A DNA stretch of 64,000 bases, from NCBI RefSeq assembly GCF_055900595.2, contig NZ_CM148325.1. One strand, 5' to 3'. A program made the translations under genes and the position numbers. The notes below the pieces were generated by a model. It was not told the origin of the DNA and ran no database searches. It worked only from the letters and a program-made list of their open reading frames with translations. Shown here one piece after another: positions 2,466 to 54,530 of this stretch; position 1 is the stretch's first letter, and every line of letters begins with the position of its first letter.

Positions 2466-4970
2466 ATGTCACAAACTATCGACCTGACCCTGGACGGCCT
2501 GTCCTGCGGTCACTGCGTTAAACGCGTGAAAGAAAGTCTCGAACAGCGCCCGGATGTTGAGCAGGCGGATGTGTCTATCACTGAAGCGCACGTTACCGGT
2601 ACTGCCAGTGCAGAACAGCTGATCGAAACCATCAAACAAGCGGGTTATGACGCATCTGTAAGCCACCCAAAGGCTAAACCGCTGGCGGAGTCATCAATCC
2701 CGTCGGAAGCACTGACAGCGGTTTCTGAGGCGCTTCCGGCAGCAAACGCCGATGACGATGACAGTCAGCAGTTGCTGCTGAGCGGCATGAGCTGCGCCAG
2801 CTGTGTTACCCGCGTACAAAATGCGCTGCAAAGCGTACCGGGCGTCACTCAGGCACGGGTAAACCTGGCGGAGCGTACTGCGCTGGTGATGGGCAGTGCC
2901 TCCCCACAAGATTTAGTGCAGGCAGTGGAAAAAGCGGGCTACGGCGCGGAAGCGATTGAAGATGACGCTAAACGCCGCGAGCGCCAGCAGGAAACCGCCG
3001 TCGCTACCATGAAGCGCTTCCGCTGGCAGGCAATTGTCGCTCTGGCGGTAGGTATCCCGGTGATGGTCTGGGGGATGATCGGCGATAACATGATGGTCAC
3101 CGCCGACAACCGCAGTCTGTGGTTAGTTATCGGCCTGATAACGCTGGCGGTAATGGTTTTCGCCGGCGGGCATTTTTACCGTAGCGCATGGAAAAGCCTG
3201 CTGAACGGTGCGGCGACAATGGATACGCTGGTGGCGCTGGGTACTGGCGTGGCGTGGCTCTATTCAATGAGCGTCAACCTGTGGCCGCAGTGGTTCCCGA
3301 TGGAAGCGCGACATCTTTATTACGAAGCCAGTGCGATGATTATCGGTCTGATTAATCTCGGTCATATGCTGGAAGCGCGCGCACGTCAGCGTTCTTCAAA
3401 GGCGCTGGAGAAATTACTCGATTTAACCCCGCCGACGGCGCGCCTGGTCACTGACGAAGGTGAAAAAAGCGTGCCGCTGGCAGATGTTCAGCCTGGTATG
3501 TTACTACGCCTGACGACCGGCGATCGCGTACCGGTAGATGGTGAAATTACCCAGGGCGAAGCGTGGCTGGATGAAGCAATGCTGACGGGCGAACCTATTC
3601 CGCAGCAAAAAGGCGAAGGCGATAGCGTTCATGCAGGTACCGTGGTGCAGGACGGTAGCGTGCTGTTTCGTGCCAGTGCGGTTGGCAGCCATACTACGCT
3701 GTCACGGATCATTCGTATGGTGCGCCAGGCCCAGAGCAGTAAACCGGAAATCGGCCAGTTGGCGGATAAAATCTCTGCCGTATTTGTGCCGGTAGTGGTG
3801 GTGATTGCGCTGGTCAGTGCGGCAATCTGGTACTTCTTTGGTCCGGCACCGCAAATTGTTTATACCCTGGTGATTGCCACTACGGTACTGATTATCGCCT
3901 GCCCGTGTGCGCTGGGGCTGGCAACGCCAATGTCGATTATTTCCGGCGTCGGGCGTGCGGCTGAATTTGGCGTGCTGGTGCGGGACGCCGACGCGCTGCA
4001 GCGCGCCAGTACGCTCGACACCGTAGTGTTCGATAAAACCGGGACGCTGACCGAAGGGAAGCCGCAGGTTGTCGCAGTAAAAACATTTGCTGATGTTGAT
4101 GAAGCGCAAGCATTGCGTCTGGCGGCGGCACTGGAACAAGGTTCCAGCCATCCGCTGGCACGGGCGATCCTCGATAAAGCAGGCGATATGCAGCTGCCGC
4201 AGGTCAACAGCTTCCGTACATTGCGTGGGCTGGGCGTGAGCGGTGAAGCAGAAGGTCATGCGTTATTGCTGGGTAATCAGGCGTTGTTAAATGACCAGCA
4301 AGTCGATACTAAAGCGATTGAAGCAGATATTTCAGCCCAGGCATCGCAAGGGGCAACGCCTGTGCTGCTGGCGGTTGACGGGAAAGCGGTGGCCTTGCTG
4401 GCGGTGCGCGATCCGTTGCGTAACGATAGTGTGGCGGCACTGCAACGTCTGCATAAAGCGGGATATCGTCTGGTGATGCTAACCGGGGATAACCCGACCA
4501 CCGCCAATGCGATCGCCAAAGAAGCAGGGATTGATGAGGTGATAGCCGGCGTGCTGCCAGACGGTAAAGCCGAAGCGATCAAACGTCTGCAAAGTGAAGG
4601 ACGTCAGGTGGCAATGGTGGGCGACGGCATTAACGACGCGCCAGCGCTGGCTCAGGCGGATGTCGGTATTGCTATGGGTGGCGGCAGCGATGTTGCCATT
4701 GAAACCGCGGCGATTACCCTGATGCGCCATAGCCTGATGGGTGTTGCGGATGCGCTCGCAATTTCCCGCGCAACGCTGCGCAACATGAAGCAGAACCTGC
4801 TCGGTGCGTTTATCTACAACAGCATTGGTATTCCGGTCGCCGCCGGTATTTTGTGGCCGTTCACGGGAACACTGCTTAACCCGGTGGTTGCCGGAGCGGC
4901 AATGGCGCTCTCGTCGATTACCGTAGTGAGTAACGCCAACCGGTTGCTGCGGTTTAAACCGAAGGAATAA
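2466..4970 (+). CDS. copA: Cu(I)-translocating P-type ATPase
   Basis: 834 aa; two N-terminal GxxCxxC metal-binding domains, CPC motif, DKTGT phosphorylation site. Confidence 0.97.
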
Positions 4971-5165
4971 GTATGTCATTGCGGATGCGCTGCTTTAGGG
5001 TGGCGCATCTGGCATCGACGCATGCCTGCCGGATGCGGCGATGTTTTGGCCTTACGCGACCTTTTTGCACGTTTTCCCCGGCGTGCCAAATATTTAATCC
5101 GTCCCAACTCCATTTGCGCCATCCCTCACCGCGCGCTAGCATGATATTTCACAAAGGGAGGTCGT

Positions 5166-5960
5166 ATGGATCTGTTGTACCGGGTAAAAACGCTTTGGGC
5201 CGCGCTGTGCGGTAATCATTACACCTGGCCTGCTATCGATATCTCTCTTCCCGACCATCGCCATTTTCATCTAATCGGCAGTATTCATATGGGTAGCCAC
5301 GATATGGCTCCCCTGCCCACCCGTTTGCTCAAAAAGCTCAAAAACGCCGATGCGCTGATCGTCGAGGCGGATGTTTCTACCAGCGATACGCCTTTTGCCA
5401 ATTTGCCTGCCTGCGAGGCGCTGGAAGAGCGCATTAGCGAGGAGCAACTCCAAAACCTGCAGCACATTAGCCAGGAGATGGGCATTTCTCCGTCGCTCTT
5501 TTCTACCCAACCGCTGTGGCAAATCGCGATGGTTCTTCAGGCAACGCAAGCGCAAAAACTGGGGCTGCGGGCAGAATATGGTATCGATTACCAGCTATTG
5601 CAGGTGGCGAAGCAACAACATAAACCCGTGATTGAACTGGAAGGGGCAGAAAACCAGATTGCCATGTTGCTCCAGCTCCCTGACAAAGGACTGGCGCTGC
5701 TGGACGATACGCTGACCCACTGGCACACCAACGCTCGTTTGCTGCAACAAATGATGAGTTGGTGGCTGAATGCACCACCGCAAAATAATGAAATAACGCT
5801 GCCCAATACGTTCAGTCAGTCGCTGTACGATGTGTTGATGCATCAGCGAAATCTCGCCTGGCGGGACAAATTACGCGCTATGCCGCCGGGGCGCTATGTG
5901 GTCGCGGTCGGTGCACTACACCTGTATGGAGAAGGGAATTTGCCACAAATGTTGCGCTAA
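5166..5960 (+). CDS. ybaP: TraB-family protein YbaP
   Basis: 264 aa, recognised as YbaP; GGAGG RBS. Confidence 0.9.
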   Translation: MDLLYRVKTLWAALCGNHYTWPAIDISLPDHRHFHLIGSIHMGSHDMAPLPTRLLKKLKNADALIVEADVSTSDTPFANLPACEALEERISEEQLQNLQHISQEMGISPSLFSTQPLWQIAMVLQATQAQKLGLRAEYGIDYQLLQVAKQQHKPVIELEGAENQIAMLLQLPDKGLALLDDTLTHWHTNARLLQQMMSWWLNAPPQNNEITLPNTFSQSLYDVLMHQRNLAWRDKLRAMPPGRYVVAVGALHLYGEGNLPQMLR

Positions 5961-6042
5961 AAAAATGGCCAATATCGCTATTGGCCCGTCAAAGAGGAAT
6001 TTCATTTTTTTATTATTATGCCGTCACTTTAAGCGACGGTGT
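5959..6042 (-). ncRNA. chiX: ChiX (SroB/MicM) Hfq-dependent small RNA
   Basis: Reverse complement matches remembered ChiX sequence ACACCGTCGCTTAAAGTGACGGC...GGCCAATAGCGATATTGGCCATTTTTTT; 3' end overlaps ybaP stop codon. Confidence 0.9.
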
Positions 6043-6163
6043 AACTCGATTGTCGCTCAATCTCACCATCCTGCCAATACTCTTAGGCAAGATGACTCTT
6101 TTTTTTGGACCGCCATCAGGCGTATGCTTGCTTCGTTTTTTTGTTTAAGGCAGGAAAATTACC

Positions 6164-6643
6164 ATGACACCCGCAGTTAAATTACTCGAAAAAAACAAGA
6201 TTTCGTTTCAAATCCATACCTACGAGCACGATCCAGCTGAAACCAATTTTGGCGATGAAGTCGTCAAAAAATTAGGTTTGAATCCGGATCAGGTCTACAA
6301 AACGCTGCTGGTCGCAGTGAACGGTGATATGAAACATCTGGCAGTGGCCGTTACGCCGGTCGCCGGTCAACTGGATCTTAAAAAAGTAGCAAAGGCGTTG
6401 GGTGCCAAGAAAGTTGAGATGGCCGATCCGATGGTCGCGCAGCGTTCGACGGGATATCTGGTTGGGGGGATTAGCCCACTGGGGCAGAAAAAACGCCTGC
6501 CGACGATTATCGACGCCCCCGCGCAAGAGTTTGCCACTATTTTTGTTTCTGGCGGCAAGCGCGGGCTGGACATCGAACTGGCGGCAAGCGACCTGGCGAA
6601 GATCCTCGATGCCAAATTTGCTGATATCGCTCGTCGCGATTAA
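6164..6643 (+). CDS. ybaK: Cys-tRNA(Pro)/Cys-tRNA(Cys) deacylase
   Basis: 159 aa, recognised. Confidence 0.93.
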
Positions 6644-6679
6644 GCATTGTGCCGGATGCGAACATCCGGCACTTTCGGA

Positions 6680-8332
6680 TTACTGCCAGCTCACCTCACC
6701 TTTCGGTTCATAGACACTCACATCCAGCGGCGAGTTTTTCTGGATATACGCTTTCAGCACTTCAGCATCAATAAAGCCGGTATTCACATAGCCCGGTTTG
6801 TTATCCAGACGCGGATAGCCATCACCGCCAGTGGCATTGAAGTTTAATGTCGCCATACGGTAAGTTTTCGCCGGATCGACCGGTTCGCCTTTGATTTTCA
6901 GGTCGTTCAGTTTGCCGTCTTTCGCCACAAAGCTAACGTTGGCAAATTGCGGATAGGCACCAGAATCAGGCTTCATTTGTGCGACGGCGGTCAGGTAATC
7001 AATCACCTCTTTACCGGTCATGTCGGCATACACCACCACATTGCCGAATGGCTGCACTTTCAGCACATTTTTATAGCTGATATCACCTGTTTCGATAGAA
7101 TCACGAATTCCGCCTCCGCTCATCACCGCAAAGTCGGCACCAGTGCGATCCATTTGTGCTGCCAGAATCAACCGCCCCATATTGGTCTGTACAAAACGCA
7201 CTTTGCTGCGGTCGCCTTCCAGACGACCATTGGTTTCGCCTATTTTCACTTCCAGCTGCGCTTTGCCTTTGTTCTGGAACGGTGATAACAGCGAAATCAT
7301 TTGCTGGTTTTCGGCGATTTCAGGGGTGTAAAGCACACGCTCGCTTTTCCCGTCTTCCCAGGTCACTTTCTTCTTCAGGTTTACCGGAATCAACTGGTAG
7401 TTGACCATTTTCATTTCGCCGTTGCGAAACTCAAAGTCGGCCCGACCAACGTACTTGCCCCACTCATGCGCTTGTACAATCCAGATGCCATTTTGTTGAT
7501 CCGGTTTGCATGGCGTACCAGGAACGTAATCGACCTGTTTTTTATTTTCTGCCGCCATACAGACTGGATCTTGCGAGTGACCTCCGACGATCATCGCCAG
7601 CGATCCGGCAGGCAGCGCGCGTGCCATCTCCACATCGCCCGCTGCATTAGAGCCGTGCTCACCATTGTCGTAATGCCCCATATGGGTTGCCGCGATAATA
7701 ATGTCTGGCTTTTCTGTCTGTTGCAGCTCCTGAATCACCAGCTTCGCTTTATCAGCGGGCTTACGAAATTCGATATCAGTGAAGTATTCCGGGTTACCAA
7801 TTTTGGCTGTGTCATCGGTTGTCAGCCCAATAACGGCAATTTTCAGATCCTGACGCTTAAACAGCGCCCATGGTTTAAACAGGCGCTCACCAGTGCTTTT
7901 TTGGTAGATATTGGCGGAAAGCAACGGGAACTTAGCCCACTTTTCCTGCTGGCGTAATACGGTGAGCGGGTTATCAAATTCATGATTACCGATCGCCATT
8001 GCATCATAGCCCACCAGATTCATACCTCGAAAATCAGGTTCGGCATCCTGTAAGTCGGACTCGGGCACGCCAGTATTAATGTCGCCACCGGAAAGTAGCA
8101 GCACGCTACCACCTTCAGCCGCAACCTCTTTGCGAATACCGTCCACCAGCGTTTTTTGCGCCGCCAGACCATATTCGCCATATTCATTACGCCAGAAATG
8201 ACCATGATGATCATTGGTATGCAGAACTGTAATTTTGTAGGTTTTATCCTGCTCATAAGCCAGAGCAGTTTCACTCGCCAGTGTAAATGTGGTTAACAGT
8301 GCTAACGCCACGCCCCGCTGCAATAATTTCAT
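6680..8332 (-). CDS. ushA: UDP-sugar hydrolase / 5'-nucleotidase (periplasmic)
   Basis: 550 aa with signal peptide, metallophosphatase motifs. Confidence 0.95.
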   Translation of the reverse strand: MKLLQRGVALALLTTFTLASETALAYEQDKTYKITVLHTNDHHGHFWRNEYGEYGLAAQKTLVDGIRKEVAAEGGSVLLLSGGDINTGVPESDLQDAEPDFRGMNLVGYDAMAIGNHEFDNPLTVLRQQEKWAKFPLLSANIYQKSTGERLFKPWALFKRQDLKIAVIGLTTDDTAKIGNPEYFTDIEFRKPADKAKLVIQELQQTEKPDIIIAATHMGHYDNGEHGSNAAGDVEMARALPAGSLAMIVGGHSQDPVCMAAENKKQVDYVPGTPCKPDQQNGIWIVQAHEWGKYVGRADFEFRNGEMKMVNYQLIPVNLKKKVTWEDGKSERVLYTPEIAENQQMISLLSPFQNKGKAQLEVKIGETNGRLEGDRSKVRFVQTNMGRLILAAQMDRTGADFAVMSGGGIRDSIETGDISYKNVLKVQPFGNVVVYADMTGKEVIDYLTAVAQMKPDSGAYPQFANVSFVAKDGKLNDLKIKGEPVDPAKTYRMATLNFNATGGDGYPRLDNKPGYVNTGFIDAEVLKAYIQKNSPLDVSVYEPKGEVSWQ

Positions 8333-19194: not shown

Positions 19195-21126
19195 TCAAAT
19201 GGGGCGGATACTTTCTTCATCCAGCTCCGCATCGAAGAATCGACGCAGGGTCTGAATATTATTATCCGCAATAATGGACTCGCGCGCCTGCGCAAGTTTT
19301 TCTTCGTATATCGCCTGACGCCATTCCAGCGGCGTGCGCACCGCGGGATTATCATCTTCAACGATAGTCAGTTCAACCGTTGAACCTTTTAACGTGCTCA
19401 ACGCTTCAGCCAGTTTTTGCTGTGCACCGCGGTTGTTTAAATGCCGCTGAGAGGAGCGCAAATGCAGACATACTGCGTTGTCGCTCTCCTCTTTCCAAGC
19501 ATTTAACGCCACCTGTTCGACCAGTTTTGGTAGCGAAAGTTGGCTCACCTGTGCCGCCCAAGGATCGCGGTCAATGGCTTCTGCCGCCAGCTTTGCCGCC
19601 AGTTCCGGCGTTTTTTCATGTTCCAGCGCTTTTTTCAGCGCCTTCGGCGTGGCGACCACCTCTTTTTGCTGCATCACTGGAGTGGTAGCCTTCCAGCGAT
19701 ACGCTTCTTTTTTGGCTGGTGCTTTTTCCAGCGCCGATGGCCCCGGACGCGCCTGAACGCGATCGGTGACCGAAGCCAGTCTTTCCAGCGCAGCGTTATT
19801 CACCGGCCGCGCGCGGGTAGCGGCTGCCGGTTCACTCTTTTTTGCTTTGGTTGCTCCCTGTGCGCGCTGCAGTTGTTGGCGCGCTGCCAGCACCTGGCTG
19901 GTGGTTTCTGAGAGCGGTACAGTCGGTGCCTGCTGCGGTGCTGATTGCGGTTGCGGCGGCACCTGGGTTGGCGTCATTACTGCCGTTGGCGCGACGGGCG
20001 CAAAAGACTGGCGTGGCACTTCTGGCTCAGGCAGCGGCATACGCGGATGAAACGCCAGTGCGCGCAACAGTGTCATCTCAACGCCCATGCGGCGGTCCGG
20101 CGCATACGGTAATTCTTTGCGACCAATCAACAGCGTTTGATAGTAAAGCTGAATATCCGTCGGCGGTATGGTGCGCGCCAGTTCACGCATCCGCAGCTCG
20201 ATGGCGGCCATGTCGTTGCCCAGCGCAGCAGGGGAAAGTTGCACCATTGCAATGCGGTGCAACAGGCCGAGCATTTCTACCAGCAACGCTTCCCACTCAA
20301 TACCACGAGCGGCGGCTTCATTAATCAGCGACATTACACGCTCGCCGTTGGCTTCAACCATCGCTTCAACCAGCGACAGCGCCTGATCGTCGTCAAGCGT
20401 ACCCAGCATCGCACTGACCGCCTGGGTTGAAACCTGGCCGTCACCGCTGGCAATTGCCTGGTCGGTTAAACTTAGGGCATCTCGCAAGCTGCCTTCAGCG
20501 GCGCGCGCCAGCAGTTGCAGCGCCCGCGGCTCGTGAGCGATATGTTCTTCGTTGAGGATGTGCTCAAGCTGATGGCGAATTTGCTCGACATCCAGCGCCT
20601 TGAGATGAAATTGCAGGCAGCGTGACAAAATCGTCACCGGCAATTTCTGCGGATCGGTCGTCGCCAGCAGAAACTTGACGTGCTCCGGCGGTTCTTCAAG
20701 GGTTTTTAACAGTGCGTTAAAGCTGTGGCGCGACAGCATATGCACTTCGTCGATCAGATAAACTTTAAAACGACCACGCGCTGGCGCGTACTGGACGTTA
20801 TCCAGCAGGTCGCGGGTATCTTCGACTTTGGTGCGCGAGGCGGCGTCGATTTCAATCAGATCGACAAAGCGCCCCTGCTCAATTTCACGACAGTTATCGC
20901 ACACGCCGCACGGCGTCGCGGTAATGCCGGTTTCGCAGTTTAGCCCCTTCGCCAGCAGTCGGGCGATAGAGGTTTTTCCGACGCCACGGGTGCCGGAAAA
21001 AAGATAAGCATGATGAATACGCCCTAACGACAAGCCGTTCGCCAGTGCGGTCAGCACATGTTCCTGGCCGACGACGTCAGCAAAGGTTTGTGGGCGCCAT
21101 TTTCGGGCTAAGACCTGATAACTCAT
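19195..21126 (-). CDS. dnaX: DNA polymerase III tau subunit (gamma produced by programmed -1 frameshift)
   Basis: 643 aa, AAA+ Walker motifs; slippery heptamer A AAA AAG at 19837-19843 (minus strand). Confidence 0.97.
   Translation of the reverse strand: MSYQVLARKWRPQTFADVVGQEHVLTALANGLSLGRIHHAYLFSGTRGVGKTSIARLLAKGLNCETGITATPCGVCDNCREIEQGRFVDLIEIDAASRTKVEDTRDLLDNVQYAPARGRFKVYLIDEVHMLSRHSFNALLKTLEEPPEHVKFLLATTDPQKLPVTILSRCLQFHLKALDVEQIRHQLEHILNEEHIAHEPRALQLLARAAEGSLRDALSLTDQAIASGDGQVSTQAVSAMLGTLDDDQALSLVEAMVEANGERVMSLINEAAARGIEWEALLVEMLGLLHRIAMVQLSPAALGNDMAAIELRMRELARTIPPTDIQLYYQTLLIGRKELPYAPDRRMGVEMTLLRALAFHPRMPLPEPEVPRQSFAPVAPTAVMTPTQVPPQPQSAPQQAPTVPLSETTSQVLAARQQLQRAQGATKAKKSEPAAATRARPVNNAALERLASVTDRVQARPGPSALEKAPAKKEAYRWKATTPVMQQKEVVATPKALKKALEHEKTPELAAKLAAEAIDRDPWAAQVSQLSLPKLVEQVALNAWKEESDNAVCLHLRSSQRHLNNRGAQQKLAEALSTLKGSTVELTIVEDDNPAVRTPLEWRQAIYEEKLAQARESIIADNNIQTLRRFFDAELDEESIRPI
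19837..19843 (-). other. dnaX: dnaX programmed -1 ribosomal frameshift slippery site (A AAA AAG)
   Basis: Plus-strand cttttttg; protein context ...ATKAKK SEPAAATRARP matches the known gamma C-terminus region. Confidence 0.85.
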
Positions 21127-36657: not shown

Positions 36658-36771
36658 GGGTGGGGGCCCTGCCAGCTACATCCCGGCACACGCGTCATCT
36701 GCCTTGGCTGCTTCCTTCCGGACCTGACCTGGTAAACAGAGTAGCGTTGCGGGAGAACCAACAGAGCCCCC
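36658..36771 (-). ncRNA. ffs: 4.5S RNA (signal recognition particle RNA)
   Basis: 114 nt; reverse complement matches GGGGGCTCTGTTGGTTCTCCCGCAACGC...GGGCCCCCACCC. Confidence 0.95.
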
Positions 36772-54343: not shown

Positions 54344-54450
54344 AGAGCTCTCTCTTAGTTTAATTTCCGCCAGGTAATCAGATGACACGACTGTGCTTCA
54401 CGCCATCTATTAACATGTACGTCAGTATATGGGGATGTTTCCCCCACATT
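54344..54450 (-). promoter_or_regulatory. lon heat-shock promoter region, uninterrupted
   Basis: Recognised leader ...CCCCATATACTGACGTACATGTTAATAGATGGCGTGAAGCACAGTCGTGTCATCTGATTACCTGGCGGAAATTAAACTAAGAGAGAGCTCT ATG. Confidence 0.6.
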
Positions 54451-54530
54451 CAACGCCGAGAATAGAGGAAAAATTAAAGGGGAGATAAAATCCCCCCTTT
54501 TTGGTTAACTAATTGTATGGGAATGGTTAA

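Follow-up and report, generated by a model that had tools for sequence, protein, structure and literature searches.

The window, which was the whole analyzed stretch of 64,000 nucleotides (contig NZ_CM148325.1, assembly GCF_055900595.2), carried ybaP (+), chiX (−), and ybaK (+) in that order, and the gene order in MG1655 was identical. ybaK was the second flanking gene that marks the conserved position of chiX. The features of the locus were as follows:

5166..5960, plus strand: ybaP coding sequence from the list of open reading frames; 264 aa, TraB/PrgY/GumN family, stop codon TAA at 5958-5960
5959..6042, minus strand: chiX (ChiX / MicM / SroB / RybC sRNA, 84 nt), from Rfam RF00368 and identity with MG1655 b4585
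5959..5960, no strand assigned: convergent overlap of chiX and ybaP, from the coordinates of the two genes
5959..5965, minus strand: U7 tail of ChiX, read from the sequence
5967..5986, minus strand: intrinsic terminator hairpin of chiX, from a terminator scan and the fold
5987..5998, minus strand: core seed of ChiX, UCCUCUUUGACG (nt 45-56), from an exact-complement search against K-12 chiP
6021..6039, minus strand: 5' stem-loop of ChiX (8 pairs, loop UAA), from the minimum-free-energy fold and the Rfam structure line
6049..6077, minus strand: putative promoter-like site of chiX, sigma-70-type, from a consensus scan (9 of 12 matches), identical in MG1655
6164..6643, plus strand: ybaK (Cys-tRNA(Pro) deacylase), from the list of open reading frames, Pfam tRNA_edit, and the annotation of related records

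The minus-strand element was identified using cmscan. The Rfam sroB model RF00368 matched 6042..5959 (−) with E = 1.8e-10 and 82.1 bits, where the gathering score is 44, and the match spanned model positions 1-83 of 83 without truncation. The 84 nt were 100% identical to MG1655 b4585, promoter included. When 171 nt comprising chiX, the promoter region, and the end of ybaP were compared with MG1655, a single base differed, and it was located at a synonymous position 13 nt into ybaP. The flanking ybaK and ybaP and their orientations were also the same, and no difference from MG1655 ChiX was found within the element itself. The conserved 20-mer of the seed region occurred once in the window, and shuffles gave an expectation of 0. 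Because of this count and the near-identity of the 171 nt to MG1655, a chance match was not an issue. Of 5426 complete E. coli genomes, 5422 carried the 84-nt chiX in one copy, 5011 of them with at least 99% identity. The sequence-only reading had named the element chiX. Alignment to the ChiX reference gave no mismatch that would refute this, and together with the Rfam match the assignment was borne out. It is virtually certain that 5959..6042 (−) is chiX, an 84-nt Hfq-dependent sRNA gene that lies tail-to-tail with ybaP and shares 2 nt with it in the U-tail, as in K-12. The gene and its layout with ybaP are already known from E. coli K-12. In Salmonella, SroB/RybC is an 84-nt RNA encoded between ybaK and ybaP in the orientation '<- -> <-', which is strongly bound by Hfq and ends at a Rho-independent terminator (PMC2515195). 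The seed and terminator of Salmonella enterica SroB/ChiX were as in the window, whereas the sequence of the 5' stem-loop was different. The present analysis covered the identity with K-12 chiX, the structure, the coordinates of the overlap, the complementarity of the seed to K-12 chiP, and the layout across species. Expression, the 3' end, Hfq binding, and chiP regulation were taken from the literature on the identical K-12 sequence or on Salmonella, and we inferred that chiX is expressed in the window strain as in K-12.

The anatomy of chiX was followed from the promoter to the tail. The candidate promoter consisted of a −35 element TTGGCA (6077-6072), a 17-nt spacer, and a −10 element GACAAT (6054-6049), and the annotated 5' end of chiX at 6042 was 7 nt downstream of the −10 hexamer. 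Judged by eye, GCGACAAT upstream of chiX was conserved in many Enterobacteriaceae. The site at 6049..6077 (−) probably functions as the promoter, as its match to the consensus suggested. The 5' stem-loop varied in sequence between genera with its self-complementarity kept (by eye, unquantified), and it was followed by an A/U-rich linker. The seed UCCUCUUUGACG was a perfect complement of the K-12 chiP leader at 708315-708326, over the Shine-Dalgarno region and 8 nt upstream of the ATG (708334). The pairing was tested against the K-12 leader; chiP and chbBC of the strain itself lie outside the window. When full-length ChiX was paired with the whole chiP leader using RNAduplex, a sprawling duplex of −38.8 kcal/mol was obtained, and 4 of 500 shuffles were equal or better. 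The seed was enclosed by the block AAAUUCCUCUUUGAC-N-GGCC at 6002..5983 (−), which occurred only once in the window. The terminator hairpin GGCCAAUAGCGAUAUUGGCC (5986..5967) had 8 pairs, 4 of them G-C, and a loop of 4, and it was followed by one A and then U7. The minimum-free-energy fold of chiX contained this terminator (z = −3.5). In an alignment of 27 species, compensatory changes were found at 2 of the 8 pairs of the terminator stem. RNAalifold recovered the terminator alone for these 27 species, and the 5' hairpin lay at variable offsets and was left unaligned by MAFFT.

On the opposite strand, YbaP matched Pfam PF01963 (E = 1.7e-43) and was 98% identical to K-12 YbaP, with the C-terminus ..GEGNLPQMLR common to both. 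The region upstream of ybaP differed from K-12. In K-12, the HTH regulator gene ybaQ is located at 508218..508559 between ybaP and copA, and the spacer is approximately 794 nt. In contrast, ybaQ was missing from the window, with only 195 nt between the end of copA (4970) and the beginning of ybaP (5166). Among the best 20 matching E. coli records, none listed ybaQ under the match. A Pfam search with the spacer open reading frames 4954..5142 (−) and 4973..5215 (+) gave no match. The spacer consisted of REP-type repeats, and a remnant of ybaQ was rejected. Strain Z0117EC0005, otherwise 100% identical, carried 122 additional bases at approximately 5026-5027 of the window (L001:627-748). These comprised REP/BIME-type palindromic units and tandem GGATGCC heptamers, with the direct repeat TGCCGGATGCGGC at the flanks. 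On its sequence, this difference appears to be an indel that arose through the repeats of a variable REP cluster. Elsewhere in the window, further Rfam matches above the gathering score were the sraA sRNA at 54415-54510 (+) with 106.7 bits, the dnaX programmed −1 frameshift element at 19798-19862 (−) with 94.6 bits, and the small SRP RNA (ffs) at 36667-36763 (−) with 68.1 bits.

The junction of the two genes was then resolved base by base. The plus strand at 5955-5970 was cgcTAAAAAAAtggcc, and it contained an A-run at 5959-5965, the first two A's of which (5959-5960) were the AA of the ybaP TAA. The final two U's of ChiX (5960, 5959) were thus templated by the ybaP stop codon. The T of the TAA (5958) was located just beyond the ChiX RNA, and the hairpin at 5967-5986 was outside ybaP. 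The sequence-only reading had stated that the A-run contains the stop and that the terminator overlaps it. The first statement was correct for two of the three TAA bases and incorrect for the T at 5958, and the second held for the U-tail, by 2 nt, and failed for the hairpin. It had also described the arrangement as the K-12 layout, with which MG1655 agreed: chiX at 507204..507287 (+) and ybaP at 507286..508080 (−) have an equal 2-nt convergent overlap. In addition, Term-seq of MG1655 placed the dominant 3' end of ChiX at 507287 (+) under each of three growth conditions (scores 445279, 552306, and 955394) and classed it as 'primary: chiX; antisense: ybaP' (PMC7815308, supplementary file 1). The flanking sequence printed for this end showed that it was the final U of the run, within the stop codon at 507286-507288 (PMC7815308). 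Since the dominant end was on the last U, the overlap in K-12 is real at the RNA level and goes beyond an annotation convention.

Conservation of the junction was investigated in a species scan. The exact search pattern was AAAUUCCUCUUUGAC-N-GGCC, so that its invariance in the sample holds by construction. One genome per species was taken, at least 120 loci formed the sample, and the convergent ybaP homologue and its stop were located in each. Two loci were left out. L060, from a Lindowbacteria MAG, was rejected as a chance match to the 19-base pattern without ChiX features, and L025 was cut at the locus end, which left 118 informative Enterobacterales loci. A convergent ybaP was located next to chiX in 115 of them. 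In 96, the 3' end of ChiX reached into the stop codon or coding sequence of ybaP, which marks the layout as an old one. The TAA lay on the last two U's, as in the window, in 87 of the 118 loci, including Escherichia, Salmonella, Citrobacter, Klebsiella, and Enterobacter, and also Serratia, Rahnella, and most Yersinia with Y. pestis among them. S. enterica subsp. arizonae (L103) likewise showed the TAA/U-tail overlap of the window. In L076 the loop contained TTTT, and translation by hand gave the 2-nt overlap. A TGA with a one-base overlap was found in Pantoea (4/118). In a further 19 loci, from several Pantoea, Erwinia, Buttiauxella, and Rouxiella and from Hafnia, a spacer of 3-230 nt separated the two genes, and chiX had no convergent ybaP in three (two Proteus and one Buttiauxella). 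In the Erwinia/Pantoea-like loci L067, L075, and L100, a chiX-ybaP spacer of 180-230 nt carried tandem GCTCAAC(T/G), with up to approximately 11 copies in L100. The ybaP open reading frame continued into chiX in five loci from Phytobacter, Kosakonia, and relatives (5/118), namely L041 (Enterobacter sp. ENT03), L048 (UBA3516), L066 (Phytobacter diazotrophicus), L094 (Kosakonia sp. S29), and L026 (Phytobacter massiliensis). In these five loci, a G instead of an A followed the ChiX U-run, and the TAA of ybaP was thereby lost. In four of them, YbaP was lengthened by ..QKNGQ*, whose codons run antisense through 17 nt of the ChiX terminator and reach their stop in its loop. In the case of P. massiliensis, the ybaP open reading frame would extend by 87 nt across the whole of chiX. 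Just ahead of the stop, the C-terminus of YbaP differed in sequence and length, and the stop stayed on the A-run.

This conservation raised the question of whether the packing is functional. Strong transcription of chiX, or pairing with the abundant ChiX RNA, might lower ybaP/ybaK, or the ybaP 3' UTR might serve as a cis-encoded sponge of ChiX. The plus strand had no terminator from the ybaP stop to the far side of chiX, so that any ybaP transcript would extend antisense into chiX with a 3' UTR complementary to ChiX. The arrangement was conserved in 96 of the 118 sampled species loci, which would fit a functional link, but inheritance of a compact layout explains this equally well because termination and Hfq binding constrain the U-tract. 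Published data place a region of Rho termination (Rho score 3.7) within ybaP, on its antisense strand at 507468 (+) (PMC7815308, supplementary file 2). This position, from DirectRNA-seq with and without bicyclomycin, corresponds to approximately 5778 (−) of the window, 181 nt beyond the 3' end of ChiX (PMC7815308). It suggested that transcription sometimes continues past the chiX terminator into ybaP, where Rho stops it. RIL-seq fragments named 'ybaP.EST3UTR' at 507215-507289 (−), which is 5957-6031 (+) of the window, lie on the ybaP strand across chiX, and many chimeras, e.g. with ArcZ and SdsR, carry this name (PMC10954441). However, these fragments were approximately 0.2% of ChiX (approximately 9.8 thousand vs 5.3 million), within the range of strand leakage, and the authors re-labelled them as ChiX (PMC10954441). 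In addition, any coupling would be dispensable, with 19 species having spacers of 3-230 nt and three having no convergent ybaP. No evidence for functional coupling of chiX and ybaP was found in the Term-seq and RIL-seq tables or the literature, and the literature found naming both genes reported no regulatory link. A functional role of the packing is unlikely. The more specific version, in which the stop in the U-tail, conserved from Escherichia to Yersinia, Serratia, and Rahnella and at times carrying antisense codons, reflects cis-antisense or interference coupling through the ChiX-complementary ybaP 3' UTR, was considered quite improbable. In that case, chiX, a gene with very high expression, would be coupled to the ybaP(-ybaK) transcript, whose expression is weak.

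The hairpin at 5967-5986 was also considered as a bidirectional intrinsic terminator that ends the ybaP transcript as well. It is nearly palindromic and therefore also forms on the plus strand, and it starts 6 nt after the ybaP stop. A bidirectional terminator is expected to have an A-run upstream and a T-run downstream of the hairpin, but the plus strand reads AAAAAAAT-hairpin-CGTCAAAGAGG, in which the T-run after the hairpin was absent. The plus-strand terminator scan called none at the hairpin, and the ybaP-ybaK interval gave only a weak 5-pair stem at 6117-6130. The curated K-12 Term-seq table contained no own-strand 3' end for ybaP or ybaK, where ybaP is maybe too weakly expressed (PMC7815308). 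A second role for the hairpin is very unlikely, and it was rejected because the plus strand has no T-run. Intrinsic terminators often release at several positions of the U-tract, 3' exonucleases can trim the product, and Rfam and annotation boundaries are not measurements in themselves. An end of ChiX earlier in the U-tract, which would leave no base in common with the ybaP stop and make the overlap merely an annotation convention, is nevertheless highly implausible and was largely refuted for K-12 by the dominant end at 507287 in MG1655, identical here, in all three conditions (PMC7815308).

The overlap is a packing feature of two convergent genes that involves the U-tail only. We read it as an inherited compact layout, in which termination and Hfq binding hold the U-tract and ybaP takes the first stop of the junction. 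Because spaced and ybaP-less species exist, the overlap itself is dispensable. In the proposed working of ChiX, the sigma-70-type promoter would start transcription at 6042 and give the 84-nt Hfq-dependent sRNA. This RNA would consist of the 5' stem-loop, the A/U-rich linker, the single-stranded seed UCCUCUUUGACG, the terminator hairpin, and seven U's. RNA polymerase would release ChiX on the last U of the tail, with the final two U's copied from the A's of the ybaP TAA. The seed would then silence the chitoporin mRNA chiP by pairing over its Shine-Dalgarno region. The chbBC intergenic region and ChiZ would act as decoy RNAs that titrate ChiX and make it unstable. In the published work, ChiX pairs in the 5' UTR of chiP and also promotes Rho-dependent termination, and the chbBC intergenic region and ChiZ sponge and destabilise ChiX (PMC7815308, citing original work).

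Tight convergent packing was also observed 0.7 kb away at ushA/ybaK. There, a 36-nt spacer (6644-6679) with one hairpin at approximately 6650-6672 lies between the TAA that ends ybaK (6641-6643) and the stop codon of ushA on the minus strand (6680-6682). In K-12, Term-seq placed the 3' end of the ushA mRNA at 506602, which is 6644 of the window and abuts the ybaK stop at 506603 (PMC7815308). Both genes of this pair encode proteins and they do not overlap, whereas chiX/ybaP has an sRNA partner and 2 nt in common. The ushA/ybaK junction indicated that tight convergent packing is routine in this genome.

The sequence-only reading had called the arrangement easy to miss in annotation, and this was borne out by the PGAP record of the closest strain, which showed copA, ybaP, ybaK, and ushA without chiX. 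Among the matches listed, E. coli PGAP records had only ybaP annotated under the 84-nt match. ChiX is among the most abundant Hfq-bound sRNAs, yet the automated annotation of most E. coli genomes lacks chiX. Of approximately 8.15 million Hfq fragments in one RIL-seq data set, 5.3 million had ChiX as the second RNA (PMC10954441). When chiX is unannotated, its reads are attributed to ybaP itself or to what is taken for a ybaP 3' UTR, and one RIL-seq study re-labelled 'ybaP.EST3UTR' as ChiX by hand. Knowing that ChiX ends inside the ybaP stop helps to prevent such mis-assignment. Caution is also needed because deletions of ybaP or chiX and 3' tags may damage the neighbouring gene.

The significance of the overlap is small beyond annotation hygiene. 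What is new here is modest, namely the breadth of conservation of the stop/U-tail junction and the Phytobacter-type extension of the open reading frame, and the understanding of the system is unchanged. In this arrangement the sRNA terminator sets where ybaP can stop, and losing one T lets ybaP enter the sRNA gene.
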